A stretch of DNA of 62,715 bases from a virus (Duplodnaviria; Caudoviricetes): IMG/VR virus record IMGVR_UViG_3300009146_000014, positions 1 to 62,715 of that record; one strand, written 5' to 3'. Of the stretch, positions 5,014 through 46,682 are shown one piece after another. Each line of letters starts with the position of its first letter. The stretch's first letter is position 1. Below the pieces are notes generated by a model. The model was not told the DNA's origin. It made no database searches and saw only the letters and a program-made list of their open reading frames with translations. The translations under genes and the position numbers were made by a program.

Positions 5014-5355
5014 TCAGAGGCGCGCAAGATCGGCCGGGCGCAGTAGCGGACAGTCGCCAAATTCTCGGATGTTGGCGCGCATGCCTTCCGCCGAGACGAT
5101 GCCGAAATCAAAGTTCGGATGGGCCGACGCTGGCGGGGTGGGGTTGGCCGCGAGCCAAGCGTCAATGCGCGCCTTTATCCACGTGTCGGCTTGCGACCAT
5201 GCGTCGGCCTCGGGCTCGTCCGTGAATGGGCCGACGAACACGCAATCATAGTGGCCCAAAACCATAACGTATGCGGAGGCGGCGTCGGTGCCGTCCGGCT
5301 CCGCGCGCTCGGCGGGGCGCTTGGGGCGCCAATCCTTTGGGTTGGGGGTCGTCAT
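5014..5355 (-). CDS. Hypothetical protein
   Basis: AACCGGAGCAA RBS. Confidence 0.55.
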   Translation of the reverse strand: MTTPNPKDWRPKRPAERAEPDGTDAASAYVMVLGHYDCVFVGPFTDEPEADAWSQADTWIKARIDAWLAANPTPPASAHPNFDFGIVSAEGMRANIREFGDCPLLRPADLARL

Positions 5356-5370
5356 GTGAGGTTGCTCCGG

Positions 5371-5544
5371 TTAGTGGATGGGTTCGGCGCGGAAGTCGCA
5401 AAGCGCATCGATCATGTCGAAGCGCACGGCCAACGCTTGGGCGCGAGCGAGGCCGCTTGCCTCATCACGGCACCAAGTGAAGCAAAAGAAACGCTCGCCG
5501 GTATCAACGAGGGTGGCGACGATGTGGAAGCGGGGGGTCGGCAT
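5371..5544 (-). CDS. Hypothetical protein
   Basis: Leader CCCCGGAGCCTGAAAATG shared with the gene starting at 6248. Confidence 0.5.
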   Translation of the reverse strand: MPTPRFHIVATLVDTGERFFCFTWCRDEASGLARAQALAVRFDMIDALCDFRAEPIH

Positions 5545-5596
5545 TTTCAGGCTCCGGGGGTTGGGGCCGCTCCCGAGTGGGAGCGGCCGGTTCGGT

Positions 5597-5815
5597 TTAG
5601 AAGTCGCTGGCAAAGATGCGCTTGAGCTTGAAATGGTTGTATCCGTGGTTCGTCTTGATCTGAGCTTTCGTTTGCTGGCCGGTGCCTTTGCACGAGTAGC
5701 AGGGGCCGACGTGGGACATCTTGCCGTTGACGCATGCGCCCCATTTATATTCGCCAGTGCCTTTGCACTTGACGCACTTGCCGGGCTTCGCGTTGGGTTG
5801 GCTCAAGTCGTACAT
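5597..5815 (-). CDS. DnaJ-type zinc-finger small protein
   Basis: Two CxxCxGxG motifs (CVKCKGTG, CYSCKGTG). Confidence 0.7.
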   Translation of the reverse strand: MYDLSQPNAKPGKCVKCKGTGEYKWGACVNGKMSHVGPCYSCKGTGQQTKAQIKTNHGYNHFKLKRIFASDF

Positions 5816-5843
5816 TTTCGGCTCCGGGTTGGTTCGTTTGTGA

Positions 5844-5892
5844 TGGCCTATATGTAGGCCACTCGATTGGGGCTGGCAAGAGGGGCTTATCA
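5844..5892 (-). promoter_or_regulatory. 49-bp early promoter/operator element, copy 2
   Basis: Same motif and spacing as 4741-4789. Confidence 0.8.
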
Positions 5893-5900
5893 AAAAAAGC

Positions 5901-5926
5901 AAAAAAAAGAGCGGCCGAAGCCGCTC
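5901..5926 (-). terminator. Intrinsic terminator
   Basis: Minus strand GAGCGGC-TTCG-GCCGCTC followed by a T run. Confidence 0.8.
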
Positions 5927-5939
5927 CCGATTTGTGCCG

Positions 5940-6248
5940 TTATGAAACGCCGGTCCAAGAGAAAGGCTTGTTGTCGTCCCGATAGATGTTGCCGCGCGCA
6001 AAATTCTTGGCGGGTGCGCGCCACGTTGCGGCCTTCAGGATGTCGCCGTTCGTCTTGTCCACAAAACCCCAAACGCTACGCTGGCCATCCGTGCCGCGCA
6101 TGCCGTGGGCGGCTACGATTTTCATATAGCGGTTGCCGCGCTCGATCGTGAGCACCGTGCCATAGTCGCCGGCATGCTGCACTCCCGAGATATGCGCTTG
6201 GACCTTGGCGACGAAAGCGGCGAGGGTGGTGTTGAAGTCGGGGGTCAT
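5940..6248 (-). CDS. Conserved phage hypothetical protein
   Basis: GNRYMKIV...SVWGFVDKTNGDILKAATWRAPAK motif of a widespread phage family. Confidence 0.7.
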   Translation of the reverse strand: MTPDFNTTLAAFVAKVQAHISGVQHAGDYGTVLTIERGNRYMKIVAAHGMRGTDGQRSVWGFVDKTNGDILKAATWRAPAKNFARGNIYRDDNKPFSWTGVS

Positions 6249-6288
6249 TTTCAGGCTCCGGGGTTAGGGGCGCCACGTCGGCGCCCGA

Positions 6289-6337
6289 TGGCCTATATGT
6301 AGGCCAGACCCGGAAGCGTGGCAAGAGGGTCTTATCA
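6289..6337 (-). promoter_or_regulatory. 49-bp early promoter/operator element, copy 3
   Basis: Same motif and spacing. Confidence 0.8.
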
Positions 6338-6410
6338 AAATAAGTTCGTCCCAAAATGAGAAAGGCGGCTCGGTTGCCCGGCCGCCTTGCCCGTTCGCGT
6401 TGTGCGCCGG

Positions 6411-6632
6411 CTATAGCATGCGCTGGCGCTGGTACGCCTTGACGTAGTGGCGGACCTCGCGCCCGTTGCGCCGCTTGTAGGTGTCAAGCCTGAGAGCGGC
6501 GGCAACTTGCGGGATACTGATAGACGGCCAGCCTAGTGCCTTGCGCGCTTCGCTGGCCGACACGCCTTTGTCGCGCGTGATGAGCTTGAGAAATACGCGC
6601 CGCTTGGGCGTGGTAGGCTTGCGGGGTGTCAT
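6411..6632 (-). CDS. Small winged-helix-like (DUF3489-like) protein
   Basis: GVSASEARKALGWPSISIPQ...GREVRHYV; paralogous to the amidoligase C-terminus. Confidence 0.55.
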   Translation of the reverse strand: MTPRKPTTPKRRVFLKLITRDKGVSASEARKALGWPSISIPQVAAALRLDTYKRRNGREVRHYVKAYQRQRML

Positions 6633-6662
6633 GGTGCTTTGCTCCGTTTGTTGTGCGCCGGC

Positions 6663-6827
6663 CTACTGGATAGCGTTGCCGACGTTGTTGAACGTGTCGC
6701 CGATGGCAGTGCCGAGCGCGCGGGCTCCGCCGATGATGGCAACCGCAATGAGGGCGGCGATTAAGCCATACTCGATGGCGGTGGCGCCGGACTCGTCTTG
6801 CAGGAAACGCTTGAGAGTGTTCGTCAT
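6663..6827 (-). CDS. flp: Flp family pilin (Tad pilus subunit)
   Basis: RFLQDESG-ATAIEYGLIAALIAVAII is the canonical Flp prepilin cleavage and EY motif. Confidence 0.92.
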   Translation of the reverse strand: MTNTLKRFLQDESGATAIEYGLIAALIAVAIIGGARALGTAIGDTFNNVGNAIQ

Positions 6828-6871
6828 GGTCTTTGCTCCGTTGGTTGCAGTCACAGTCACGTCAAAAAAAA

Positions 6872-7114
6872 TCAATCGTCGTCAGAAGGCTTCGAGTCGT
6901 CGTCTCCCATGCCGCACGCGAGCGCGTCCATGGCGAGCTTGATGTACTTGGGAGTCGGGTGACGACCTTGCTCCCAACCGTCCAAGGCTTGCCGGGAGCA
7001 ACCGAGCGCGTCCGCCGCTTGCCGGGTTGAATAGCCCATAAGCGTGCGCCACTCGGCGACGGGGTTGGAGTTTTTCTTGGTGCGCTTGCGGGTAGCGGTG
7101 GCGGTGGTGCCCAT
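6872..7114 (-). CDS. XRE-family HTH protein
   Basis: WRTLMGYSTRQAADALGCSRQALDGWEQG. Confidence 0.8.
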   Translation of the reverse strand: MGTTATATRKRTKKNSNPVAEWRTLMGYSTRQAADALGCSRQALDGWEQGRHPTPKYIKLAMDALACGMGDDDSKPSDDD

Positions 7115-7170
7115 GGCACGAGTCCCTTTCGAGTGGGGGGATGCTCCCGAGCGGGAGCATCCCGGTTGAG

Positions 7171-7446
7171 TTAAGCGTTGCCGATCGCCGCGACGTTGGC
7201 GCCGGCCGGCAGCACGCCGGTTTCGTAGTAGGCGCGGACCGCCTCATAGCTTTCCGCGACTGCGAACCCGCCGCCGTCTTTGAAAGTCAGACGGGTGCCC
7301 GGCTTGCCTTCGTTGCGCGGGTTGAAGCACCGGATAGCATCGCGAGCGACGCTAACCGCAACCGTTTCCACGTCGGGGTCGCCTTCGTCCTCACGATACG
7401 AGGCTTGGCGGGTCAAGAGCTTGGTGAGGTTCAAGAGAGTCGTCAT
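7171..7446 (-). CDS. Hypothetical protein
   Basis: AAGGA RBS; followed by a hairpin near 7140-7161. Confidence 0.55.
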   Translation of the reverse strand: MTTLLNLTKLLTRQASYREDEGDPDVETVAVSVARDAIRCFNPRNEGKPGTRLTFKDGGGFAVAESYEAVRAYYETGVLPAGANVAAIGNA

Positions 7447-7478
7447 GGTCGTGTTTCCTTCGTTTAGCCTTGGTGGGT

Positions 7479-8072
7479 TCAATCGCCGTACACGCACAAG
7501 GCATTGCGTACACGGCTCACGACATCGAGCGACAGTTGAGTGCAGCACGTGGCGGGCTTCTGCGGTGCTTTGCCTTTGAGGCTAGGCCGCTCTGCCAAAG
7601 GTGGGCGCCCGTTTCGTGCGTACCTCTGCCGCTCGATGTGAGACGGATTCTTTTCGTCATGCGAGGCCTCAACCGCGTCGCGGAGCGGCTTTTGCTTGAG
7701 GCCAAAATTCCGATAGCCTTCGCGGATGGTCGCGAGGTAGCCCATGGACGGGGGCATGATGCCTTCCGAGTTCATGACGTAAAACATAATCGTGTCATGG
7801 CCTCTGATCGGCTCGGTTAGCTGCACTTCCACCTTGCGATACATGCCGCCGGCCACGCCTTCGTAACGATCAAGCGAGGCCTCGCACTCGTCCGTGATGA
7901 GCCACAAGCCGCCCGGCACGCGCGAGCCTTTCGAGTAGACAACATCGGCGACGCCACGAAAGACGAGCTTGGCGTCATCGAGGAAGAAGGCGCCAACGGC
8001 CACGGCTTTGGGGCAGCGCCATTTCATCTGGCGTTTGTGGAGGTTCGAGCCGTATGCGAAATAAAGCTTCAT
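7479..8072 (-). CDS. Gamma-glutamylcyclotransferase (AIG2-like)
   Basis: YFAYGSNL, LDRYEG and P...YL..I..GY motifs. Confidence 0.88.
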   Translation of the reverse strand: MKLYFAYGSNLHKRQMKWRCPKAVAVGAFFLDDAKLVFRGVADVVYSKGSRVPGGLWLITDECEASLDRYEGVAGGMYRKVEVQLTEPIRGHDTIMFYVMNSEGIMPPSMGYLATIREGYRNFGLKQKPLRDAVEASHDEKNPSHIERQRYARNGRPPLAERPSLKGKAPQKPATCCTQLSLDVVSRVRNALCVYGD

Positions 8073-8091: not shown

Positions 8092-8140
8092 TGGCCTACA
8101 TATAGGCCATCGGGTTGAGGTTGGCAAGAGCCGCTTATCA
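8092..8140 (-). promoter_or_regulatory. 49-bp early promoter/operator element, copy 4
   Basis: Same motif; its TGATAAG also provides the amidoligase stop codon. Confidence 0.8.
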
Positions 8141-9196
8141 GAAAGCGTGCGTCTCGGGTTGGATGGCCGGGCGAGTCGGGGCCGGGTTGAGCAGCGTTGT
8201 ACGGGTGCGCATATAGTCGGCCTCATCAGGGGTTGAGCCAATGAGGTTGCAGAGGCCGGCGAGCGAGATATCCAAGGCCATGCTGGTCTGCATCGCGGCG
8301 CGGCGCACGTAGTAGCGAACCTCGCGGCCGGTACGCTGCGAATAGATATCCAGCTTGCAAGCCGCCGCCTTCTGCGGAATGGAAACGCTGGGCCAGTTGA
8401 AGGCGCGGCAAACCTCAGTGCGCGAGACGCCATTGGCGCTCAAGAGCATTTCGCCAATCTGCCAAGCCTTGCTGCCGCGCTTGGCGCGATTGACGATGGC
8501 CGGGGCAGTGTTGGCGATCGGCAGTTCGCGCGAGGCCGCGATGGCGATACGGAGGCAGGTAAGAATCCAGGTGCGCGCCTTCGTGTAATTGATCGTGCCG
8601 CTATGCTGGCGAAACTCGACGGTCTTGTAGGTGTTGTGAGCGACGATGTTGAGCTTGTGATAGCGGGCTTTGCTGGCGCCGGTTGCGCGCTTGATCGCAT
8701 CGGCGAGGTCGGCAACCGAGTAGGCCGCCTCGATGCTGGCCGCGCGGACGGAGGCGAGCGTGCGGCAGTAGGCGTTGACGGAGCCGCGACGGTTGGTCGG
8801 CATCATCTTGTCAATGATGGGCTCATAGGACTGATAAAGCCGGACCAACTTTTTGAAATAGCCGATCTGTTGCGGGCCGACGCCAACGTGCACATGCAGG
8901 CCGCACTTGTCCGAAACGGTGCAGCGGAATTGCGCGAGCATGCGGCAAACCGTGGCGACTTGAGCAAGCCCGGCATCGCCGCGCAGCACGGGCGAGACAA
9001 GCTCGATGCCGCGCGAATAGTCGCCGAGCGATCCGTCTGTTACGATGCGCCAATGCGAGGTAACGACGTGGCCGTAGGCGGCAACCGAGCAAGCGACGCC
9101 GGCATCAGAGATTGCGCGGGCGAGCGCATGACGGTCGCCACCTACGGGCAAGTAGCACTCAAACTCGACGCCGAAGGTGAAAACGTCAGGGGTCAT
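8138..9196 (-). CDS. Putative amidoligase (COOH-NH2 ligase, Amidoligase_2) with C-terminal wHTH-like domain
   Basis: FGVEFE, DGSL, ELVSP, CGLHVHV, RY..LN and TVEFRQHSGT motifs. Confidence 0.88.
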   Translation of the reverse strand: MTPDVFTFGVEFECYLPVGGDRHALARAISDAGVACSVAAYGHVVTSHWRIVTDGSLGDYSRGIELVSPVLRGDAGLAQVATVCRMLAQFRCTVSDKCGLHVHVGVGPQQIGYFKKLVRLYQSYEPIIDKMMPTNRRGSVNAYCRTLASVRAASIEAAYSVADLADAIKRATGASKARYHKLNIVAHNTYKTVEFRQHSGTINYTKARTWILTCLRIAIAASRELPIANTAPAIVNRAKRGSKAWQIGEMLLSANGVSRTEVCRAFNWPSVSIPQKAAACKLDIYSQRTGREVRYYVRRAAMQTSMALDISLAGLCNLIGSTPDEADYMRTRTTLLNPAPTRPAIQPETHAF

Positions 9197-9230
9197 TTTT
9201 CTTGGTCCGGTGTTAGGCGTTTCGCGTTGG

Positions 9231-9279
9231 TGGTCTACATATAGGCCACGCGAACGGACATGGCAAGCCCGACTTATCA
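9231..9279 (-). promoter_or_regulatory. 49-bp early promoter/operator element, copy 5
   Basis: Same motif with one mismatch in the palindrome; back-to-back with the terminase operon. Confidence 0.78.
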
Positions 9280-9298
9280 AAAAAAATGAGGTATCCAA

Positions 9299-9961
9299 AT
9301 GGCCAGGAACAGGAAGCGAACCGCCAAGCCCGGCAAGGCGGCAGCCGACGAATCGCCGTTTGATCATCCGCGCGGGCCTCTGATCGGGGCGACGATGGCC
9401 GGTGTTGTGCTGATGCGCGACCCGGAGCGCGTGCGGCAGCTTGCGCGGGCCGGGTGGTTCCAATCGGAAGGCAGCCGCGCGGGGCACAAGGGCGCGGCGT
9501 ATCGATTGCTCGATATCGTGCACGGGTACATCCGTTTTCGCGATGATGAGGGCCGGCGCGGCACAAAGACGGCAGCCGCCTCGCGGATTGCGGAGGCTCG
9601 CTCGCGCGAGGTTGAGTTGCGCAACGCCTATCGCGAGGGGCACCTTATCGAATTGGAGGAGGCGCTTGAGACGGTTGAGGCTATTATGGGCGTGCTCCGA
9701 TTGAATTTGTCGGGGCTGCCGGCGCGCGTGACGCGCGACTTGCAACTGAGGCGGACAATAGAGACGGCCATAAATGACATCCTCGACTCGCTTGCGGATA
9801 TTGCCGCCGAGAAGTCAAAAGCTTTGGGAAAAGTTCGAGCTTCTAGCGCGCCCATCGCGGCCGATGACACCGGACAGGTGGGCGGCAGAGAATCGAACGC
9901 ATCCGCAAACGTCCGCAGTGCCAGGGCCACGCGACCCGCACTTGACCCCGTACATAATTGA
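9299..9961 (+). CDS. Terminase small subunit (Nu1-like)
   Basis: wHTH (ERVRQLARAG) plus coiled coil; directly upstream of the large subunit. Confidence 0.75.
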   Translation: MARNRKRTAKPGKAAADESPFDHPRGPLIGATMAGVVLMRDPERVRQLARAGWFQSEGSRAGHKGAAYRLLDIVHGYIRFRDDEGRRGTKTAAASRIAEARSREVELRNAYREGHLIELEEALETVEAIMGVLRLNLSGLPARVTRDLQLRRTIETAINDILDSLADIAAEKSKALGKVRASSAPIAADDTGQVGGRESNASANVRSARATRPALDPVHN

Positions 9962-11801
9962 ACCGGAGCGCGCGGTTGCATCGGGCGGCACGCACAAACG
10001 AATCGTGCTCGTCATCGCCGCGCAAACCGGCAAGACGGAATTTATGTTGGATGTGGCCGGGCAGCGGCTAGACCAGAAGCCGGCGCCGATTCTCTATGTC
10101 GGGCCGAACAAGCAATTCCTCGTTGAGCAATTCGAGCCGCGATTGATGGCGTTGCTCGATGGTGCGCCGAGCCTCGCGGCGAAAGTCGCGCGGGGCAAGC
10201 GCATGACCAAGACGCGCAAGGTTGTGGCCGGCGTGCCGTTTCGTCTCGCGCACTCCGGTTCGTCGGCGGCACTGAAGTCGGACCCGGCGGCGCTCGCGTT
10301 GATTGATGAGTTCGATGAAATGAAATCGAACGTCAACATGCAGGGCGGGCCGCTCGGGTTGGTCGAGCGGCGCGGAGACACCTATGCCGAGTTCGTTGCC
10401 GTGGTAACATCGACGCCAAAGAAAGGGCGAGTCGCGGCGGTACGGGATGAGCGGTCGGGCCTCATATTTTGGGACGTTGCCGTGGTCGAGGATATCGAAA
10501 GCCCGATTTGGCAACTGTGGCAACAGGGCACGCGGCATCATTGGTGCTGGCCGTGTCCGCAGTGCGGCGAGTATTTCGTGCCGCGATTCAACTTGCTGCA
10601 ATATCCGCTCAATGCGACGCCGCTAGAAGCGGCGCGCGAATGCTTCCTGAAATGTCCCAACTGCGGGGGCGTGATCACGAACGAGCATAAGGAAGCGATG
10701 AATGAGCGCGGCCGGTATGTCGCGCCGGGGCAATCAATCACGAAAGACGGAATCATTCACGGTGCTCCGCATGAGCGGATGACGCTCTCTTTTTGGGTGT
10801 CCGGTCTCGCCTCGCCGTTCGTCACGTTCGGCGAGCGCGTGGCGATGTACGTGGAAGCGTTGCAGTCTGGCGATGATGCGATGGTGCAACAGGCCGTCAA
10901 CGCGGGGTTCGGCGAGCTACACTCGCCGGGCGGCGGCGAGGTTCCCGAATGGGCGGAGATAAAGCAGAAGTCGTTGCGCGCGAGCTATCGGCGCAACGAT
11001 GTTCCGGAGGATGCGCTTTATCTGGTGATGACGGCGGACGTGCAACGGCAGTCGATACCGTGGGTGATTCGGGCGTGGGGAGCGCGCGCCACGTCGTGGC
11101 TCGTGAATTACGGCTACTTGCGCGGCGACACATCAGAGGAAGAAATATGGGAAGCGCTCGGCGATTTGATGGTGACGCCGATTCAAGGCGTGCCTATCAA
11201 GTTGGGATTCATCGACTCCGGGTTCCGACCGGGCAAAACGGACACGCTGCCGCTCAATCGCGTGTATGAGTTTTGCCGGCGCTTCTCTCGGCGGGTGCGG
11301 CCGACAAAAGGTTCGTCGGCGCCGATGCGCACGCCGCTCATCTTTTCAAAGATAGAGGTCAACCGTAAGGACGGGCGCGCGGCGAAGTTCGGACTCGACT
11401 TGGTTCGCCTCGATACCGATCATTGGAAAAGTTGGGTGCACGAGCGGCTCCGTTGGCCAGAGGACAAGATAGGCGGGTGGCACGTGTTCCGAGATATCGA
11501 TGACGACTATTGTCATCAACTCGTGTCGGAAGCGCGCTTGAAGCAACCGACCGGGCGCATCGAATGGGTGCAGCGCTCGCGGCATAATCACTTTTTCGAT
11601 TGCGAGGCGATGCAAGCCGCCGCCGGCTACCTCTTGAACGTGCAGAGGATTCCGTTGCAAAACCGTTCTCAATCGCCTAAAGAGGAAATTGGCAGGCAGC
11701 CGGCAACACCTTCTGAGGACCAATTTACTCCGTCGCAAGCGCAGCATCAGGCGCGTATTCCAAGACGGCGGGTCATCCGGTCGAGCTACCTCGGAAGCTA
11801 A
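9774..11801 (+). CDS. Terminase large subunit, lambda GpA family
   Basis: AAQTGKT Walker A, LIDEFD Walker B, STP, CPxC zinc motifs, TADVQ and NHFFDC nuclease motifs. Confidence 0.93.
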   Translation: MTSSTRLRILPPRSQKLWEKFELLARPSRPMTPDRWAAENRTHPQTSAVPGPRDPHLTPYIIEPERAVASGGTHKRIVLVIAAQTGKTEFMLDVAGQRLDQKPAPILYVGPNKQFLVEQFEPRLMALLDGAPSLAAKVARGKRMTKTRKVVAGVPFRLAHSGSSAALKSDPAALALIDEFDEMKSNVNMQGGPLGLVERRGDTYAEFVAVVTSTPKKGRVAAVRDERSGLIFWDVAVVEDIESPIWQLWQQGTRHHWCWPCPQCGEYFVPRFNLLQYPLNATPLEAARECFLKCPNCGGVITNEHKEAMNERGRYVAPGQSITKDGIIHGAPHERMTLSFWVSGLASPFVTFGERVAMYVEALQSGDDAMVQQAVNAGFGELHSPGGGEVPEWAEIKQKSLRASYRRNDVPEDALYLVMTADVQRQSIPWVIRAWGARATSWLVNYGYLRGDTSEEEIWEALGDLMVTPIQGVPIKLGFIDSGFRPGKTDTLPLNRVYEFCRRFSRRVRPTKGSSAPMRTPLIFSKIEVNRKDGRAAKFGLDLVRLDTDHWKSWVHERLRWPEDKIGGWHVFRDIDDDYCHQLVSEARLKQPTGRIEWVQRSRHNHFFDCEAMQAAAGYLLNVQRIPLQNRSQSPKEEIGRQPATPSEDQFTPSQAQHQARIPRRRVIRSSYLGS

Positions 11802-17176: not shown

Positions 17177-17244
17177 GCGGGAAGTGAGAGAGCGGAGACG
17201 CGATGCGCTCCGCCAAAACCCCAGGCGAAAGAGGAGACGCGACC

Positions 17245-18807
17245 ATGCCCGTCAGTTTCTCAAACATTCCACAGAATTGGCGCCAGCCGCTTTATTGGGT
17301 GGAAGTGGACCCGAGCATGGCCGGCTATCCGCGCTCGCGTCTCACGTCGTTGCTAATCGGCACGATGCTGCCGAGCGGCACGGCGATTCCCGATGTGCCG
17401 ATTCCGGTGCCGAGCCAAGCCGACGCGCGAGTTCTCTTTGGTCTCGGGTCGATGCTTGACGGCATGGTCGAGAGCTTCACGGAAAACAATTTCGCGCAAG
17501 AGCTTTGGTGCTTGCCGATCGTGGAAGCCGTGGGCGTCAAGGCGTCGGGCGATTTGACGATCACAGCGCCAGCGGAGAAGGCCGGCACATTGCCGCTCTA
17601 TGTCGCCGGGCGTCGCGTGCAAATTTTCATCGAGGCCGGCGAGGGCGTGGAAGTCACGGCGGGCAAGATCGTGAAAGCGATCAATGACGACCCGTCTATG
17701 CCGGTGATTGCGTCGAGCGCTAGCACGGACAGTCCCGTGGCGTCGCTCGAATGCAAGTGGGCGGGCGTCGAGGGCAACGACATTGACGTTCGCCTCGCCT
17801 ACGGTGGATTGCTGGCCGCCGAGAAAGTTCCGTTCGGTCTGCAAATCACAGTGCCGGCCGGCAACAAGTTGGCCGGCGGCACGGGTACGGTGGACATCGA
17901 GCAAGGTCTTATCAATCTGGCCGACGAAATTTATGAATATGTCGCGACCGGGTTCACCGACTCGACGTGTCTTGCGCGGCTAGACCATGAGTATGGCTTT
18001 TCGGATGAGGGCCGGTGGGGATGGCTCCGCCAGCTTTACGGCCACATCTTTGGGGCGCGTCGCGGCGAGCCGATCAACGACCAGACCGGCTATAGCGATT
18101 TGCTGATGTACGGGCCGAACAACAATTCCGGCGTCATTTCGCTGATGGGCATCGAGGCCTATTCGCCGACGCCAACTTGGAATTGGGCGGCAGCGTATGC
18201 GGCCAAGGCGGCGCGTGCTCTGCTCAATGATCCGGCGAGGCCGTTGCAGACGCTTGCCATGGAAGGGTGCTTGCCGGCGCCGAAGCATCAACGCTTTACG
18301 ATCAAGCAATGCAACGACCTCTCGGGCGTCGGCATCGCAACGCAGAGGATCAACGCCAACGGAATCCCGGTGATCGCGCGAGAGTCGACGACGTACCAAA
18401 AGAACCTCTACGGGTTCGGTGATGACGCTTATGAATTGGTGCCGACGCTGGCGACGCTCGCCGCGTTGTTCCGTTCGCAGCGCCACGCCATCACGTCGAA
18501 GTTCCCGAGGCACAAGCTCGCCGATGACGGGACGCGGTTCGGTGCGGGGCAAGCCATCGTCACTCCCAAGATCATCAAAGCGGAGTTGGTGGCGCAGTAT
18601 CGGTTCGATGAATTTTTGGGGCGTGTCGAGAATGCGCAGGCATTCAAGGCGAACCTCATTGTCGAGCGTGATCCTCAAGACCCCAACCGAGTCAACGTGC
18701 TGTATCCGCCCGATCTGATCAACCAACTGCGAATCTTTGCGGTGCTGGCGCAGTTCCGTCTGCAATACAATCGCGGTGTGGATACGGAGATTGCTTCGCT
18801 CGTGTAG
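17245..18807 (+). CDS. Contractile tail sheath protein (Mu gpL-like)
   Basis: FSNIP, FGLGSML, DPARPLQTL, TTYQKN, PDLINQLRIFA. Confidence 0.93.
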   Translation: MPVSFSNIPQNWRQPLYWVEVDPSMAGYPRSRLTSLLIGTMLPSGTAIPDVPIPVPSQADARVLFGLGSMLDGMVESFTENNFAQELWCLPIVEAVGVKASGDLTITAPAEKAGTLPLYVAGRRVQIFIEAGEGVEVTAGKIVKAINDDPSMPVIASSASTDSPVASLECKWAGVEGNDIDVRLAYGGLLAAEKVPFGLQITVPAGNKLAGGTGTVDIEQGLINLADEIYEYVATGFTDSTCLARLDHEYGFSDEGRWGWLRQLYGHIFGARRGEPINDQTGYSDLLMYGPNNNSGVISLMGIEAYSPTPTWNWAAAYAAKAARALLNDPARPLQTLAMEGCLPAPKHQRFTIKQCNDLSGVGIATQRINANGIPVIARESTTYQKNLYGFGDDAYELVPTLATLAALFRSQRHAITSKFPRHKLADDGTRFGAGQAIVTPKIIKAELVAQYRFDEFLGRVENAQAFKANLIVERDPQDPNRVNVLYPPDLINQLRIFAVLAQFRLQYNRGVDTEIASLV

Positions 18808-36564: not shown

Positions 36565-36924
36565 ATGAGCGTTGTCAACATCACAGTCCACAATGACGCG
36601 GACTTTTATTGCGTCTTTGACTATCAGTCGGTCGCGGGTGTTCCCATCGACATCAGCGGCTCATCAATGGTGATGATGCTCCGCCGGCACGCGAAGGACG
36701 AGGCGGCGCAACTGCGGCTCGGCACCGACACGGGCGAGATTGTCTATGTCGATCCGGTGCAAGGGCGATTCTCGGTTCGCATCGTGCAAGAGGTTTTGGA
36801 GCGGCTCGGGCTCGGCGACTTTGATCATTCGAACGTCATGAAAAAGGGCGACAGCAAGATTGCGATTTGGACGGGCACGTTCACAAACAATCCGGGCGCG
36901 GCGCGGGGGGACTTTCCGCTATGA
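36565..36924 (+). CDS. Virion adaptor-like beta-sandwich protein
   Basis: P.DISG....M motif; sits before the collagen-like fiber. Confidence 0.5.
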
Positions 36925-38588
36925 ACAGCGTCACAGTCAGCAACGGGCCGTCAACGACAGCCGGCGAGGGGATGACGCCGGTTGTTGTTGTCGCGCACGA
37001 CATGCTGGAGACGATCATTGTTGGCCAGCAAGGGCCGCCGGGACCACAGGGGCCGCCCGGTCCGCCGTCTGCGGTGCCCGGCCCGGAAGGGCCGCCGGGC
37101 AATTCGATTATTTACGGCACGTCTCCGCCGAATAGCTCTGTCGGCGAGGATGGCGACAGCTACATCAACAAGACGACGAATCTTTTCTACGGCCCGAAGG
37201 CGAATAATGTTTGGCCGGCCGGCGTGTCGATGGTGGGGCCGCAAGGTCCGCAGGGCGCGCAAGGTGCACAAGGGCCGAAGGGTGATGCGGGCGCGCAAGG
37301 TGCGCCGGGCGCGCAAGGTCCGGCGGGGCCGCAAGGTCCGCAAGGCTTGCCGGGCGCACAGGGCGCACAGGGCAATGTGGGACCGCAAGGGCCGCCCGGC
37401 CCAACCGGCGCGGACTCGACGGTGCCCGGCCCGGCCGGGCCGGCGGGCGCAACCGGCGCGCAAGGGCCGCCCGGCCCAACCGGCGCGGACTCAACGGTGC
37501 CGGGGCCTCCGGGCGCAACCGGCGCGCAAGGGCCGAAGGGTGACAAGGGCGACACGGGCGCGGCATCAACGGTGCCGGGGCCTCCGGGCGCAACCGGCGC
37601 GCAAGGTCCGGCCGGCGCGCAAGGTCCGCAAGGCATCCAAGGTCCGGCCGGGCCGGCGGCGGGTTCGCTCATTCCGCAGGGCCGGCTAACGCTCAACACG
37701 GCGACGCCAATCATGCTGGCGTCATACGCGAACGTGGGCGCGATAATTTACACGCCGCACAACGGCCTCTATCTGCCGCTGTTCGATGGCTCGACTTTGG
37801 TTGCGGCCAATGTGGGCGGCGAACTTGGGCAGCTACATGCCGACACTTCCAAGAGTCCGGCCGCAGCGGTGGCCAACAAGACTTACGATGCGTTCGCTTG
37901 GCAGGACGGCGGAGCGGTGACGCTTTCGCGCGGCTGGCCTTGGCAGTCGGACACATCGCGCGGAGTCGGCGCCGGCACATCCGAGTTGATTCGCAGGGGC
38001 GGGATATACGTCAACAAGTACGCCATCACGAACGGGCCGGCGGCGGAGCGCGGGACATATCTCGGGAGCTTCCGCACGAACTCACTCGGGCTTAGCGATC
38101 ACATCATAAACACGTACGGCACGCCGGTTGCGGCGAATCACTTGGGCGTGTGGAACAAGTACAACCGCGAGCCTCTGACGACTTGGTTGCATGACACGGG
38201 CGCCGACTATCAATCGACTCCGGGCAGCACGTGGCTCATGCATTGCCTACACGCCGGCACGCGATGGAATTTCTTGCGCGGGCTCGATGAACATCAAATG
38301 GTGTTTCGCATGGCCGTTCGCGGCAATGGCCCGGCGGGGCATTATCAGCAGTTCGGATTCCTGTTGGATGCAGCGGCGGGGGCGCCGGGACTAGCAGGGC
38401 AGAATTGGCTGTCACAGGTTGGGGTGCTGCAAGTCGCGTCGAGCGTCTATGATATTTCGGTGGAGGCGTCGGCGGTGCTTACGACCGCGCTCGGTTGGCA
38501 CTATACGCAGGCGATGGAATGGGTTTCGACGCCATCGACTATCAAGCGAGCGCAATACCACATGCTTACGTGTCAGACGATGTACTAG
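36921..38588 (+). CDS. Collagen-like fiber protein
   Basis: Long G-X-Y repeats (about 37020-37660) with ADSTVPGP interruptions; C-terminal globular domain. Confidence 0.82.
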
Positions 38589-40998: not shown

Positions 40999-41310
40999 TC
41001 ATTCAAAAAAGTATCGAGCGTTGTGAGCGAGGCACAACGCGAACGGGTCTTGATGGCCACGCATGCGCCACCATTCGAGTTCGTTGCCGAATTGGTGTTG
41101 CGATCGGTGACACGCGGAAGTGAGCGGCAGCGCCCAAAGGTCATCCGGCTTTTCACCGAGTCCACAGTGCCGCTTATCATACGCACGCGAGGCGGCGCGT
41201 AAGTGTGCCGCCTCGCATGGTGGACCGCGCATGCATCCGCAAGCGCAGCGTTGCTTGCGGACCCATGCGAGATATCGGTTATTGATCACTCGTGGGCGAC
41301 GTTGCCTCAT
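40999..41310 (-). CDS. DUF968-like (HNH-like) phage protein
   Basis: YLAWVR...C..C.....EAAH...KPDD...PL...CH..QH. Confidence 0.72.
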   Translation of the reverse strand: MRQRRPRVINNRYLAWVRKQRCACGCMRGPPCEAAHLRAASRAYDKRHCGLGEKPDDLWALPLTSACHRSQHQFGNELEWWRMRGHQDPFALCLAHNARYFFE

Positions 41311-42344
41311 TGGCGCCTTTGGCCTTTCGCGGGCGCGGCTTTGCTGCCGGACGCTTTGCTGCCGGCTTTGCTGCCGCCGGCACCGGAGCGGCCACTTTCG
41401 CTCGCGGCTTGCGCGCCTTTTTGTGGTTCGCCGTCTTTGGCAGACTTCGCGCCAGTTGCTTGACGACTCGAGTCAGTTGTAGTGCGTCTCCCTTGGTCGT
41501 TAGCTTCCCGTCCAAGACGAGCGCGAGACTCCCGTCTATCGTTATTGCCGTCAACGAGATTGTCGCCGGCACTTTCGGGTCCGTCATCTTGACTGCCATC
41601 ATCCGCCTCACTTTCTATAACGCGGTTTACGTGCGCGACATCGAATCCACGAGACTGATCTTTCGCACTGTCGCGCAGTCGTTGCGAAAGAGCAGAAACA
41701 CGTTCGTTGACTTCAATCATGTCCTCGCTGGTGGTGATTTCCTCTGGCGTGTAGACGCCGAGCAAAACCTCCGGGCAATGCATGCGCGCCCATTGACGGA
41801 CGGCGGAATAGAAAAGCTGGACCTCCGGTTGGTCATCCCATAGCGGCGAGCCTTTGACGCGGCCTTTGTCGTTGCGGCCTCGCGCATCGCGGAGCTTGCC
41901 GAGCGTCTCTGAAATGTATTCGTGCGGCTTGCTCTCGCCGATGAATAGGCCGGTCACTTTGCAGCGGCGCTCGTCTCCGTCGCCGAGAATCTCAGTTCGC
42001 AACCGGCCTTTGAGCGGTGCCCATCGAATGACGATCGCGTGCACAAGCTGCGATTCGTAGCCGATACGTTCGTCTCCGCCTTGCGTGTAGGCGATATAAG
42101 ATTTCTCGGCGACGGCGTAGGGGTCCATTTGCCAGCGCAGAGCGCGTGAGAGGATGGCGAGGCAGGCGCCGGGATTGCCTCGCAAATACTTGGGCACGGC
42201 AGCGCCGGACACGCTCATGAGCTTCGCAAGCTCGGTGGCTTGGCCCATGTTCTCCGGAGTGATGCCGCCGCCCATCGATTGGATGGGGATTGGTGCAGTA
42301 ACGGCGCGGTCAATGCGCTTCTCGATTTCGCCAACGTCAATCAT
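41307..42344 (-). CDS. recT: RecT-like single-strand annealing protein
   Basis: VP..LRGNPG.C.A....A.RW.MDP.AVA.K, YE.QL, PLW...P..QL.Y...R.WAR..CPEVLLGVYTPEE. Confidence 0.82.
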   Translation of the reverse strand: MIDVGEIEKRIDRAVTAPIPIQSMGGGITPENMGQATELAKLMSVSGAAVPKYLRGNPGACLAILSRALRWQMDPYAVAEKSYIAYTQGGDERIGYESQLVHAIVIRWAPLKGRLRTEILGDGDERRCKVTGLFIGESKPHEYISETLGKLRDARGRNDKGRVKGSPLWDDQPEVQLFYSAVRQWARMHCPEVLLGVYTPEEITTSEDMIEVNERVSALSQRLRDSAKDQSRGFDVAHVNRVIESEADDGSQDDGPESAGDNLVDGNNDRRESRARLGREANDQGRRTTTDSSRQATGAKSAKDGEPQKGAQAASESGRSGAGGSKAGSKASGSKAAPAKGQRRQ

Positions 42345-42727
42345 GGGGTGTTCCCTTTTGCCATGTGCTCGACAAGCTTGAGGATGATGGCGCGCGCCTC
42401 TTGCGACAGTCGGGGCCATTTCGAGGCGACTTTGTATCCGTCGTTGCTCGATAGGAATTTTGCAATCTCCGACTCGCCGGAAGCGCGCACATCGGTTGCG
42501 CGTGGAAAAAACCAACTGATGGGCCGATGCAGAATCGTCACCAAGAGTTCGATGCGCGCGGGTGGGATGCGATCGCCTCCGGATTCGTATTTTTGTAGCT
42601 GTTGATAAGAGACGCCGATTGCGTCGGCGACATCCTTTTGAGAAAGGCCAAGAGCAAGCCGGGCCTCGCGGATGCGAACGCCGATGGCTCGATCGTAATC
42701 GGTTGGATGCCGGCCGGTCGCATTCAT
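42341..42727 (-). CDS. XRE-family HTH regulator
   Basis: IG.RIR.AR...GLSQ..VA.AIGVSYQQLQKYE.G.RI, typical of alphaproteobacteria. Confidence 0.88.
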   Translation of the reverse strand: MNATGRHPTDYDRAIGVRIREARLALGLSQKDVADAIGVSYQQLQKYESGGDRIPPARIELLVTILHRPISWFFPRATDVRASGESEIAKFLSSNDGYKVASKWPRLSQEARAIILKLVEHMAKGNTP

Positions 42728-43107
42728 TTTGCTATCGCCGATTTTGGCCCGACTAGGATTGATGGGGGAAGCGGCAGCGCGTGCTTGAGCGGCTTCCACA
42801 AGTGGAGGCAGTGCGGGTGACAATTCACGTACTCCGCTTTCGGTGGGTGATACTGGATGACGGTCTCATTCTCGTGCCAAAAAATGTCTTTGACCCAACA
42901 CATTTCATCCCATGTCGGGCACCGATCGCGCGCCGAGACGCTCACGTGTTCCCAACCGTGCCGCGCATCGACGCCGCTCGAAATGACGAGCAACCGCCCG
43001 AGCGGGCCTTTGAATTGAAACGCGCCTTCGCGCTTGCCGGGCAAGGTCGCATAGTGGCCGTCAAGAATGCGGCACGGCTCGACATCAGGTGAAAGTGTAA
43101 GGCGCAT
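42724..43107 (-). CDS. Conserved phage hypothetical protein
   Basis: GWEHVSVS...RCPTWDEMC.VKD.FW...E.V.QYHP...YVN.H..CLHLW. Confidence 0.75.
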   Translation of the reverse strand: MRLTLSPDVEPCRILDGHYATLPGKREGAFQFKGPLGRLLVISSGVDARHGWEHVSVSARDRCPTWDEMCWVKDIFWHENETVIQYHPPKAEYVNCHPHCLHLWKPLKHALPLPPSILVGPKSAIAK

Positions 43108-43117
43108 CAGTCTCTCT

Positions 43118-44885
43118 CGCTCGGGGGTTTCGGTGCTCTCGCTTGGAACGGCTCGCTCTGCGTCTTTGGGTGTCTCGATGTAGATGGCACGGTTCGCTCT
43201 TTTCTTACGGTGCTCTCGACGGTCAAGGCTCGCTCAAAGGATTCGGTGCTCTCGATGTGGGTGGCTCACTCAAAGGATTCGGTGCTCTCGGGATCGATGG
43301 TGGTTTTACTCGATGGCAAATGGCTCGCTCGCTGTATTCGGTGCTCTCATCGGCGAGTGGCTCGCTCGGCGACGATGGTTCTCTCGACGCGAATTGGCTC
43401 GCTCGGTGATTATGGCGCTCTCAACGGACCCGGCTCGCTCGGCGACTACGGTGCTCTCGGTGGCGCGGGCTCGCTCGTCGACGACGGTACTCTCTACGGT
43501 TCGGGCTCGCTCGCTGCTCTCGGTTCTCTCACTTTCACATGGCTCGCTCGCTGCTTTCGGTGCTCTCGCTTGTGCTGGCTCGCTTTGATGGTTCGGATTC
43601 CTCAGTGGTTCGGGCTCGCTCGTCGTATTCGGTGCTCTCGTGGGCAACATGGCTCGCTCTCAGGCAACGGTGCTCTCAGCATTATCGGCTCGCTCACGTA
43701 TTTCGGTTTCTCTCAACGGGGCTGGCTCGCTCATGCGTGACGGGTATTCTCAACGGTGCTGGCTCGCTCTGTGGGTACGGCGCTCTCGGGCAGTATGGCT
43801 CGCGCTCTTGCATTACGGCGAATGTGCTCAAAGGCTTTGGCATCGCTCAAGGGTTGCGGCGCTCTCGGCATAGACGGCTCGCTCAAGTCCAAGTGGTTCT
43901 CTCGGCATAGACGGCTCGCTCAAGGGGTTCCGGTGCTCTCTCTCTGTGTGGCTCGCTCGCAGGGCTGGGTTCTCTCTTGCTTGTTTGGCTCGCTCATTTG
44001 GTTCGGGTGCGCTCGCTTCTAACGGCTCGCTCAACGCGGAATGGTGCTCTCGTCGTGCAAGGCTCGCTCTTAGGTGCTGGTGCTCTCGACGCAGACGGCT
44101 CGCTCTCCCTTTTCGGTTCTCTCAATTGCAAAGGCTCGCTTGCAGCAGACGGTTCTCTCGTGCGCTACGGCTCGCTCGTCGGTTTCGGTGCTCTCTGCGC
44201 TTAGGGCGCGCTCAACGAAATTGGTTCTCTCGTGGGGCTCGGCTCGCTCTGTGTTCTGTGGTTCGCTCTCGGGATATGGCTCGCTCTCGCTATCCGGTAC
44301 TCTCATGGCAAAGGCGGCTCGCTCGTTGGGCTCGGTGCTCTCTTTGGCCTCTGGCTCGCTCGATGATATTGATGCGACTCGCTTGAGACGGCTCGCTCGT
44401 TGTTTTCGGCGCTCTCTCGCTGATGGGCTCGCTCGTTGTCTCCGGGTTCTCTCTATGAGTACGGCGCGCTCACGTCCTACGGTGCTCTCTCGGATTACAG
44501 GCTCGCTCGTTTGCTCCGGGCTCTCTCGACTGATTCGGCGCGCTCGCGCTTATCGGTGCTCTTGCATCATGTGGCTCGCTCAGGAGAGAACGGTTCTCTC
44601 ATCTCTCTAGGCTCGCTCATGGGTTTCGGGTGTCTCGTGTGTCATGGCTCGCTCATTTGGCTCGGTGCTCTCTCGCTGATTGTGGCTCGCTCGCATTTCT
44701 GGTGCTTGCTCTATTTCGACGGCTCGCTCATTTGGCTCGGTTCTCTCTCGCTGTACGGCGCGCTCGCGAAGCATGGTGCTCTCGGTCCGATTGGCTCGTT
44801 CAACTCCGATGGTGCTCTCGGGGATTACGACTCGCTCAAAGCTTAGGCTCGCTCGCGAAGCATGGTGCTCTCTGGTCTTACGGCT
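43118..44885 (-). ncRNA. TIGR-like (tandem interspaced guide RNA) array, about 48 units of about 36 nt
   Basis: Minus-strand unit AGCC-N9-GAGAGCACC-N9-GAGCG (plus strand GGCTCGCTC-N9-GGTGCTCTC-N9); spacers variable, mostly 9 nt (8-11); indels break every reading frame; starts at the stop codon of the Nop-domain gene. Confidence 0.88.
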
Positions 44886-45735
44886 TAATCAAATGCGCGT
44901 GCCCAAGGTGCGCGATGGCGTACGGCATCGGCGGCTCGATGTTGAGGATGCGCCGACACATTTCGCCATGCAGATGGGCGAGGAAAATTTTGACGGCGTA
45001 GCGCCGCGCCATCGCGTGAATGCGACCGGGCGGATACTTGCCGACGCTATACGCTTTATAGGCCTCGGTTTCCTTCCGGTACTTTTTCGCCAGCAACGTG
45101 GCTGCCGCCTTTTCGGCATAGTCGCCGCGCTCGTTGCGCTCGATGTAGACGGCTTTTTGCTTGGCCCATATGTGCCCGTAGACGCACTTCTCATGATTGT
45201 GGAATTTGACGAACGACTCGCCGGCCTTCCAACAAATCACCTTGAGCGATGCATTCCAGGGCCGCTTGGTTTTCGGTGCCCATGTCACGGTTGGATCAAG
45301 CCCGGCGAATCGCCAGATGTGCCCGACTGTCGGCGCCTTGTTGATGTCGATGTGCGCGAGCAAGCCGGCGGCAATCACCGGGCCGATGCCGTGCACGGAC
45401 ACGAGCCACTCGCCAACCGGATGCGATTCGACATACTTGCCGAGCGCGCGCTTGATTTGGCCTTCAAGCGTTTCCGTCTGAGTGGCGAACCATTGCAAGA
45501 CGGAGTGCGGCTCGATGGCCTTGGCGACCTCGCCGGTTTTGTCGTCAACGGTCTCGATGGGGTTTTGCTGGATTGAGCGGATTTGCCCATCGCTCCGGAT
45601 GCGCTGCTCTTGTTGTTGGTAGTAGGTATCAACGAGAAAGCGAACCTCCGCCTCGCTCAAGGTGACAGAGGCGCTCGCGATGTCGCGGGTTAGCCGTTGG
45701 ATGGGTGTCGTTGCAATCGTCGTGTCCGTGCTCAT
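44878..45735 (-). CDS. tasA: IS110/Nop-domain RNA-binding protein, TasA-like (no nuclease domain)
   Basis: Coiled-coil N-terminus (YQQQEQRIR), WL.SVHGIGPVIAAGLLAHID, IWRFAGLDP, RPWN..LK, H..A.R..VK.FL.HL; no DEDD/RuvC or HNH domain; abuts the array. Confidence 0.82.
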   Translation of the reverse strand: MSTDTTIATTPIQRLTRDIASASVTLSEAEVRFLVDTYYQQQEQRIRSDGQIRSIQQNPIETVDDKTGEVAKAIEPHSVLQWFATQTETLEGQIKRALGKYVESHPVGEWLVSVHGIGPVIAAGLLAHIDINKAPTVGHIWRFAGLDPTVTWAPKTKRPWNASLKVICWKAGESFVKFHNHEKCVYGHIWAKQKAVYIERNERGDYAEKAAATLLAKKYRKETEAYKAYSVGKYPPGRIHAMARRYAVKIFLAHLHGEMCRRILNIEPPMPYAIAHLGHAHLIKP

Positions 45736-46682
45736 GGTCCGCCTCCGGGTAGCTCTCGGGTTAAACGTGCGTCAATGCGGGCGCGCTCATCCGTGGCCAA
45801 CGGGAGCGAGCGCAAATCATTCTCCGCCGGACCGGGCCAATGATCCTCGCGGATGCACGAGGCGATCTTGCGGAGCATGGCGCGGTTCTGTAATCGGCCG
45901 CGCGCCAAATCGTCGGGGTCAACCGGGACGGCGCGCGCACAGTACGGTGGCGCCGTCTCGATAAACATCAGAGTGAAAAACTGGAAAGGCGCGGTCGGGT
46001 CGATGACTTCCACGGCTTCCCAAATCAGTGCCGCTTGCTGGTGATAGGCGTAGGCACGGATTGCGTATTGCAGCGCCGGGCTTGTGACCTCCGCCGCAGT
46101 TTTTAAATCCACGTAGTCTCCGCCATCGGTCGGGATGACATCGGGCCGAACCTTTACCCAAAGGTCGGTCTCCGGGTGCTTGAAGAATCCAGAGACCTCG
46201 ATGTGACCGCGCAGAATGCCGGCATTGATGAGCGGCTCAAGGGTGAGCGATCGGGCCATGCCGACAATGTGCTCAAGCTCCGCTTGCGTGACGATCACGC
46301 GGCCAAGCTTGGTTTGCTCTGCCGCCCATTGCCGGCACGGCTTGGCGTTGCCATTCCACGGCTTTGTCTCGGCGGTGGTTCGGTCGCGATAGGTCGCGGG
46401 CTGCTTTGAGAAGCGGAGCCGGAATCCATCCTCGCCGAGAAACAGATGATGCGCTGCCGCGCCGAGTATCATAGCGCGAGTCGTCTTGCGCGGAATCGCT
46501 TTCGGGTTCTCAACCCATGTCGAAAACATATGCGCGGCGGATTTCGACCAACACGTGCGCAAGTCGGTGGACGATACGGCGAGGCCTTTGCATATGCCGC
46601 GCGAGTGATAGCGATCGATGGGGATGCCGCTATACCAACCGGGCTTGGTGATCGGCTTGCCATTCCACTTCGTGATGATCAT
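45732..46682 (-). CDS. RecE/exonuclease VIII-like PD-(D/E)XK nuclease
   Basis: YH, SST.L, G.A.H, KVRPD, DLKT, Y.YH.QAA motifs. Confidence 0.85.
   Translation of the reverse strand: MIITKWNGKPITKPGWYSGIPIDRYHSRGICKGLAVSSTDLRTCWSKSAAHMFSTWVENPKAIPRKTTRAMILGAAAHHLFLGEDGFRLRFSKQPATYRDRTTAETKPWNGNAKPCRQWAAEQTKLGRVIVTQAELEHIVGMARSLTLEPLINAGILRGHIEVSGFFKHPETDLWVKVRPDVIPTDGGDYVDLKTAAEVTSPALQYAIRAYAYHQQAALIWEAVEVIDPTAPFQFFTLMFIETAPPYCARAVPVDPDDLARGRLQNRAMLRKIASCIREDHWPGPAENDLRSLPLATDERARIDARLTRELPGGGP

Follow-up and report, generated by a model that had tools for sequence, protein, structure and literature searches.

A dual-repeat TIGR-TasA locus with a 48-unit array in a myovirus-like phage

Introduction

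What would a tailed phage do with some 48 short units of alternating repeats, laid out directly behind the gene for a small Nop-domain protein? The question is raised by the IMG/VR viral record IMGVR_UViG_3300009146_000014 (Duplodnaviria; Caudoviricetes), the entire record of a phage genome in a single contig of 62,715 bp with 60.8% G+C, which was analysed over its whole length and is called the window below. A preliminary description, made by a model from the sequence letters without database searches, took the protein and the repeats for an RNA-guided system, TIGR-Tas of the TasA type. We find that a myovirus-like phage carries this dual-repeat TIGR-TasA system as cargo, and that its TasA protein would bind and bend DNA without cutting it, and block transcription; the probability of this reading as a whole is put at roughly 0.85. 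The identity of the system is close to certain, and its activity at this locus and its biological role are what we infer by analogy with better-studied systems.

The system class and this exact protein were already published in 2025, and the locus is not novel. Faure et al. (2025, Science, PMC12045711) list an identical 285-amino-acid protein in their Table S1, headed "all TIGR systems", where the 39-residue N-terminal string of TasA occurs twice. One entry gives the gene coordinates as 44877_45735 on the minus strand, compared with 44878-45735 in the window.

The TasA Protein

The protein encoded immediately upstream of the repeats matches Tas proteins in sequence, in fold, and in its NCBIfam profile. 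In a phmmer search of Protein Data Bank (PDB) sequences, the best match is TaTasR (9mty, E 1.1e-13), and SpTasH is matched at E 1.3e-8. With the NCBIfam model NF052498 (TIGR_Tas_endo, an equivalog named "TIGR-Tas system RNA-guided endonuclease"), the protein reaches 209.9 bits where the cut-off is 100, whereas its 30.8 bits with the IS110 transposase model NF033542 fall short of the cut-off of 140. An AlphaFold2 monomer model built on 34 homologues, with a mean predicted local distance difference test score of 86, was compared with the PDB by Foldseek; TasH and TasR chains occupy all of the top 10 places (E 3.9e-7 to 3.1e-6, template modelling score 0.50-0.71), followed by the IS621 and ISCro4 recombinases at E 0.02-0.05. 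The hidden Markov model and structure searches that had been proposed along with the preliminary description thus came out in favor of a Tas protein.

Pfam gives a partial match to PF02371, the C-terminal domain of IS116/IS110/IS902, at residues 111-153 (E 3.5e-5); at E values up to 10 this is the only match, with no HNH, RuvC, or other nuclease domain. Residues 1 to approximately 104 of the model consist of helices and one beta hairpin, and the alignments of TasR and TasH to TasA start past their RuvC and HNH domains. Because Pfam detects no nuclease domain, the modelled N-terminus is made up of helices and a hairpin, and the alignments begin beyond the nucleases of TasR and TasH, the protein is of the nuclease-free TasA type. 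The TasA assignment of the preliminary description is upheld by this Tas/Nop protein without a nuclease domain, by the dual-repeat array, by an edge-repeat core in common with experimentally studied arrays, by the conserved Tyr/His processing pair, and by the entry in Table S1.

The GIG and AGLDP motifs, already pointed out in that description, are present as GIGPVIAAGL at residues 116-125 and FAGLDP at 143-148, and G116, I117, G118, P119, G145, D147, and P148 are invariant in all 34 homologues. Residues Y272 and H279 align in the phmmer alignment with Y289 and H296 of SpTasH, which PMC13421893 (citing Yang et al. 2026) gives as the catalytic residues of metal-independent pre-tigRNA cleavage. 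All 34 homologues have H279, and 28 of the 34 have Y272, the others carrying W (3), F (2), or S (1) at that position; the two are putative processing residues. Dimerisation of TasA is assumed from the solved relatives.

The Dual-Repeat Array

Directly downstream of tasA and on the same strand, repeat A (GAGCGAGCC) and repeat B (GAGAGCACC or GAGAGAACC) alternate with a step of ~18 nt. Exact GAGCGAGCC occurs 37 times in the window, 35 of them between 43150 and 44854, where 1.45 are expected in the window by chance, and the B consensus GAGAGMACC occurs 32 times, 29 of them in the array, with 0.67 expected; neither count is reached in 100 shuffles (0/100 for each). In a Viterbi parse, 96 repeats form a single chain between 44890 and 43140. 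A last edge copy, GAGCGAGAG, truncated at its 3′ end (43122-43114), brings the total to 97 repeats or 48 units, in line with the earlier hand count of about 48. The order of A and B is broken at two places only, 44854/44837 and 43307/43289. The array is thus confirmed, with its start moved from the stop codon of tasA, as the first edge copy is a degenerate GATTAAGCC (44890-44882, 6 of 9 bases) that lies inside the 3′ end of the gene.

The A-type copies are exact in 35 of 48 cases, and the B-type copies read GAGAGCACC in 19 of 48 and GAGAGAACC in 10 of 48. Of the 95 spacers, 68 are 9 nt long and 18 are 10 nt long; the others measure 11 nt (4), 8 nt (2), or 14-15 nt (3). The 46 clean A-B-A units are 36 nt long in 23 cases, 37 nt in 18, 38 nt in 3, and longer in 2, and 33 of these 46 units have no more than one mismatch in any of their three repeats. 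Spacer G+C is 50% compared with 60.8% for the genome. Many spacers that follow a loop repeat start with GAAACC, GAGCC, or CGAACC, and so look much like the 3′ end of a repeat.

The boundary between repeat and spacer is not where the nine-letter consensus places it. A purine directly follows B in 34 of 35 cases and A in 24 of 33, none of 68 spacers ends in G, and in homologue arrays with the same repeats the post-repeat position is fixed as G or A. Because the first post-repeat base is biased toward purines and the last spacer base is never G, the repeat is effectively 10 nt, ending in CCR, and leaves ~8 freely variable bases per spacer. The two alternating repeats stand as first described, with an effective length of 10 nt in place of 9 nt.

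Written in this way, the two repeats are GAGCGAGCC(R) and GAGAG[C/A]ACC(R). Both begin with GAG, which is box D-like at the 5′ side, and end with CC and a purine, which is box C-like at the 3′ side. As read from the sequence, repeat A permits the pairs G3-C8 and C4-G7, whereas repeat B permits only G3-C8, around AGCA or AGAA. The core of repeat A, GCGAGCC, recurs unchanged in the edge repeats that Table S1 of PMC12045711 gives for Ta, Par, and Sp, and the same paper describes a loop repeat that is A-rich between the boxes and an edge repeat in which one more base pair is added to that of box C/D. Repeat A is assigned as the edge repeat because it shares GCGAGCC and has the additional C4-G7 pair, and repeat B as the loop repeat because it has only G3-C8 around AGCA or AGAA. 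The transcribed strand would be the tas strand, and an array that opens with a degenerate edge copy and closes with a truncated one is in keeping with the published layout.

Family Context and Array Dynamics

Homologues of TasA number 5,862 proteins at E ≤0.001, and the nearest non-self protein is 70% identical. A family sample of 85 loci, 22 viral and 63 from metagenomes, was compared with the window; several of these loci are one contig present in both collections. A simple period-36 detector, for which at least 5 units were counted, is positive in 64 of the 85, and after removal of three low-complexity false positives recognised by eye (L013, L071, and L075), 61 of 85 loci have an array in the same orientation and position downstream of tas. 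Most of the sampled arrays have 5-28 units, many being cut by contig ends, and the longest others are in L015/L084 (one contig, ~47 units) and L081 (at least 45, cut by the contig end). The window array, at a detector estimate of ~48 units, is the longest among the 85 loci sampled. For a broader scale, TIGRFinder is reported to have been run on 20,096 loci and to have given 4,126 dual-repeat arrays with 65,635 tigRNAs (10.64898/2026.09.09.750476), which by our own arithmetic is ~16 per array.

Different clades have different repeat pairs, such as GAACGAGTCA/GAGAGAACCA and GATTTTAACA/GAGTGAACCA. Positions 3 and 8 of the edge repeat covary, being G-C here and A-T or T-A elsewhere, which is what a base pair would give. 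No spacer is shared between the window array and those of L062, L063, L065, L079, and L093, which have the same or near-identical repeats. Two of these loci, L065 (1580-2166) and L093 (605-1377), carry the same repeats as the window and have 13 spacers in common with each other; their listed spacers differ at both ends, and L065 has two middle spacers that are missing from L093. In this pair, units of a TIGR array have been gained or lost in nature. Elsewhere in the sample, an insert of 0.3-1.3 kb interrupts the tas match, as in L020/L103 (6001-6417 and 7726-8079), L022 (5680-6114 and 7156-7689), and L100 (3541-3957 and 4279-4668), and in L022 the repeat k-mers span 5157 to 8066, across the gene. 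Such loci may have intragenic arrays of the kind described in the 2026 preprint, or their genes may be disrupted.

The spacers of the window array are more alike than shuffling of positions would give. Compared with position-shuffled controls, 4 spacer pairs are identical where 0.05 are expected, and 31 are within two mismatches where 14.2 are expected, a number reached in 0 of 300 shuffles. Many of the similar pairs are exactly one unit apart, with only one of the two spacers alike, and because such pairs share just one spacer, tandem duplication of a unit followed by change of its other half is suggested.

The whole stretch is contained in one sequencing run, which may be where this DNA came from, and pieces of the locus are also found on contigs of three soil-metagenome runs from two other studies. 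Their tasA fragments have 1-3 differences in 227-396 nt. Their array fragments include a clean 36-nt skip (44060 to 44097) and other skips with replacement letters, and 21 of the 23 substitutions fall in spacers, though spacers make up only half of the covered bases. A pattern in which repeats are kept and spacers changed fits selection on the repeats. The contigs are short, with a low depth of 2.5-7, and repeats can mislead alignment, so the soil variants with unit deletions and spacer replacements are a lead and not a result.

Genome Setting and Neighbouring Genes

The carrier is a myovirus-like phage with a complete genome. A PHROG scan of the 34 larger open reading frames describes a tailed phage with a contractile tail, and the features are collected in Table 1. 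The window contains no tRNAs, and no Rfam family is matched at gathering thresholds; fibrillarin and L7Ae were not searched for specifically. When 20 kb of the window were compared with the phage collection by megablast, nothing matched. An amidoligase-like gene (8138-9745, minus strand; phrog_2443, E 3.5e-38) adjoins the terminase. An 18/36-nt tandem repeat at 37236-37346 lies inside a tail-fibre open reading frame (36867-38588) with matches to collagen-like tail-fibre PHROGs, and is a coding repeat unrelated to the TIGR array.

Table 1. Features of the TIGR-TasA locus and of the phage genome that carries it
Feature	Position	Strand	Basis
Dual-repeat TIGR array, 48 units	43114..44890	(-)	Repeat parse, shuffles, Table S1 comparison
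tasA, 285-aa nuclease-free Tas protein, coiled-coil and Nop domain	44878..45735	(-)	PDB phmmer, Foldseek, NCBIfam, Table S1
PD-(D/E)XK exonuclease, exonuclease VIII-like, upstream neighbour	45732..46832	(-)	phrog_412 E 6.9e-58; PF12684
DUF7694 protein, downstream neighbour	42724..43107	(-)	PF24746 E 1.3e-27; phrog_7839
RecT-like single-strand annealing protein	41307..42515	(-)	phrog_561 E 5.5e-53; PF03837; synteny
Large terminase	9774-11801		PHROG scan
Tail sheath	17203-18807		PHROG scan
Portal, major head protein, baseplate proteins, tail fibre, endolysin			PHROG scan
Replication/recombination block: ribonucleotide reductase, helicase, exonuclease VIII-like, RecT-like		(-)	PHROG scan

The stop codon of the exonuclease gene overlaps the start of tasA (ATGA), and because of this overlap the two genes are probably co-transcribed. 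The start codon of the DUF7694 gene (43107) is 7 nt past the end of the array, and a single transcript would cover exonuclease, tasA, array, DUF7694, and RecT. The exonuclease itself is context and lies outside the TIGR system.

Whether the module belongs to this place can be judged from two relatives. Terminases 77-80% identical to that of the window are found in a Bradyrhizobium genome and in a 58.5-kb contig of a Casimicrobiaceae metagenome-assembled genome, and both regions are collinear with parts of the window, with 17-18 kb covered by blastn. In these related phages the exonuclease and RecT genes are adjacent, 825 and 366 nt apart, whereas in the window they are 3,216 nt apart. Neither TasA nor DUF7694 has a tblastn match in the exonuclease-recT interval of the two, and the TasA protein is found in none of 5 genomes with related terminases. 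By this comparison, the TIGR-TasA module is ~3.2 kb of cargo between the exonuclease and RecT. The DUF7694 gene may have arrived together with the module because, like tasA, it is missing between the exonuclease and recT in both related phages.

Homologues of the exonuclease, RecT, or DUF7694 are near tas in 0 of the 85 sampled loci within the flanks examined (0/22 viral and 0/63 metagenome), and therefore the position between exonuclease and RecT is probably an incidental insertion site. This agrees with PMC12045711, where TasA is described as being without a fixed partner. The Casimicrobiaceae contig, 58,514 bp long, is collinear with much of the window and has the terminase that is 77% identical; it looks like a related phage genome and not chromosomal DNA, which makes it weak evidence for a host. 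The host is uncertain, with relatives in Alpha- and Betaproteobacteria.

Comparison with Known Systems

Among the closest published architectures is the dual-repeat TIGR-TasA of PMC12045711, exemplified by FpTasA of Flavonifractor plautii. Common to both are a solo Nop-domain Tas protein, a phage carrier, a downstream edge/loop array with paired short spacers, and a truncated first and last edge repeat. The array of the window has 48 units compared with "most often 5 to 15" in that paper, about half of its units are 37-38 nt, no terminator was found after it, and the next gene follows at 7 nt. FpTasA itself is distantly related, and Table S1 prints other repeats for it than those of the window array.

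SpTasH of the Salicola phage CGphi29 (9w02, 9w03, 9w04, and 21kl; PMC13421893) has the Nop fold and the aligned Tyr/His pair in common with TasA. The SpTIGR array alternates AAGCGAGCCA and AAGACAACCA in Table S1, which are very similar repeats with 8 variable bases per spacer, and PMC12045711 describes the Salicola phage array as having 16 variable nt. SpTasH has an N-terminal HNH nuclease and cuts DNA, whereas TasA here is without HNH, and the identity between them in the structural alignment is ~20%. TaTasR, listed by Foldseek as TIGR-TasR with tigRNA and target DNA, is the best sequence match among the solved structures and shares the GCGAGCC core and the "CC-purine" of box C; it differs in its N-terminal RuvC domain, in a box D of "UG" compared with "AG" here, and in a Trp in place of Y272. 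The TaTIGR and ParTIGR arrays alternate TGCGAGCCA with TGAAACCCA in Table S1 of PMC12045711, a paper in which the RNAs of the Ta, Par, and Sp arrays were sequenced.

In function, the locus is likened to MbTasA and to catalytically dead TasR repressors (10.64898/2026.09.09.750476), which are nuclease-free and are reported to give guide-dependent DNA binding and reversible transcriptional repression. CsTasR and PateTasR are described with stem-loop arrays and without the Y/H loop, unlike the dual-repeat locus of the window with its Y/H pair. The IS110 bridge-RNA recombinases (IS621, 8wt6 and 8wt9) have a related Nop-like RNA-binding domain and a two-loop split guide logic in common with TIGR-Tas. 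Their DEDD catalytic domain, single bridge RNA, and recombination activity have no counterpart at this locus.

Proposed Mechanism and Its Weighing

By analogy with the studied relatives, the array would be transcribed as part of the exonuclease-tasA operon. A TasA dimer would assemble on the box C/D-like repeat ends, and the pre-tigRNA would be cut within each edge repeat to give self-processed tigRNAs of ~36-38 nt. The two spacers of each tigRNA would then pair with opposite strands of one site of 16-18 bp, where the nuclease-free complex would bind and bend DNA uncut and block transcription, as for MbTasA, for which RNA-guided repression and an electrophoretic mobility shift assay are reported (10.64898/2026.09.09.750476). 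The phage would in this way carry up to ~48 programmable DNA-binding specificities. Along one strand, the predicted site would consist of spacerA and then the reverse complement of spacerB, each spacer pairing with the 3′ half of one strand. We derive this form from reports of 8-nt 3′ overhangs and of where the cut falls in each spacer (PMC12045711), and it is the one that had been put forward in the preliminary description.

Several observations weigh against such a mechanism. Sites of the predicted form were searched for with the 40 of 47 units that have clean repeats, along with three control geometries and shuffled pairings. In the phage's own genome, with the array masked, the best match has 2 mismatches in 18, and counts equal those of controls and shuffles. 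Cores of 16 nt have no exact match in the phage, the related phage contig, 80 kb around the Bradyrhizobium prophage, or 748 kb of other loci; one match with a single mismatch occurs in the true geometry and one in a control. For comparison, a 5-Mb genome would by chance contain ~0.007 exact 18-mers for the whole set of guides. A simple consensus scan finds no terminator-like site after the array on the minus strand, unlike the typical published layout, and no promoter, with nothing above shuffles for either. Thirteen of the 46 clean units have at least one repeat with two or more mismatches, and 23 of the 46 are 37 nt or longer where 36 nt is canonical; some units may be non-functional, and not every unit need work. 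The experimentally tested TasAs (Fp, Mb, and Pl) are distant relatives, and TasA function is treated in three papers, two of them preprints. Self-regulation through perfect sites is unlikely because the phage's own DNA has no match beyond controls, and the guides would most likely be aimed at the DNA of a host or a rival element and not at the phage itself.

Some of the same observations could be turned into a different account, in which the module is a decaying or selfish passenger with little present function for the phage and an array that persists by tandem duplication. The failure to find targets would fit, as would degenerate units whose repeats have 3-5 mismatches (near 44379, 43829, 43603, and 43307) and the excess of similar spacers over shuffled controls, many of them one unit apart. 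Decay is hard to reconcile with an intact tasA frame in which all conserved residues are present, with three well-kept repeats in most units (33/46), and with metagenome variants that keep the repeats while the spacers change (21/23 substitutions), and a passenger is regarded as unlikely. A role tied to the RecE/RecT-like module is judged very unlikely. In that case TIGR-TasA complexes would open and bend sites for the exonuclease and RecT, or mark them for annealing by RecT, and the guides would direct recombination or repair and not silencing. The arrangement invites the idea, with tasA overlapping the exonuclease stop codon, the array followed by DUF7694 and RecT, and a single strand carrying the whole series, in which no terminator was found; Faure et al. 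(PMC12045711) also speculate that a bend of ~180 degrees could aid recombinases. The association is nonetheless repeated at none of the 85 other loci within the flanks examined, and the two related phages keep the exonuclease and RecT adjacent without the module.

The remaining alternatives concern what the protein and the repeats are, and are hardly credible. The label "transposase" given to the family by PHROG and older annotations, together with the PF02371 match, would suggest a remnant of an IS110-family transposase with bridge-RNA-like repeats, or another insertion-sequence relic. Neither Pfam nor the model has a DEDD/RuvC-like N-terminal domain, the IS110 profile falls far below the score of the TIGR-Tas profile, IS621 and ISCro4 rank below all Tas structures (E 0.02-0.05 compared with 1e-6), and an array of 48 units is not a bridge RNA; identity as an IS110-family transposase is refuted by these domain tests. 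The 1.8-kb repeat region might also be taken for the gene of a repetitive protein, since periods of 18 and 36 nt are multiples of three, or for a CRISPR array. CRISPR repeats are of a single type, 25-36 nt long, and accompanied by cas genes. Here there are two types of 9-10 nt, and among the 34 larger open reading frames scanned there is no match to a PHROG described as Cas, as the preliminary description had held. Its rejection of a coding region also stands, given that 27 of 95 spacers are not 9 nt and shift the frame repeatedly, that the four array reading frames tested are all without a Pfam match, and that a constant 9-10 nt alternating with a fully variable 8-9 nt is not a codon-level pattern; its statement that all frames are broken needs qualifying, as plus-strand reading frames of up to 178 amino acids run through the array. 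For practical purposes, the coding and CRISPR readings are both refuted by the frame shifts, the repeat types, and the absence of a Cas match.

Implications

A reading of the raw sequence without tools can suffice to recognise a TIGR-Tas locus. The practical value of the locus as a TIGR-TasA system lies in the combination of a complete phage genome, an unusually long dual-repeat TasA array, an "empty-site" comparison, and natural array variants. It is a usable case for two questions that the literature states as open, namely the natural targets of TasA and the gain and loss of array units. If the soil variants are true alleles, their series of unit deletions, spacer swaps, and conserved repeats would record how TIGR guides are gained and lost.

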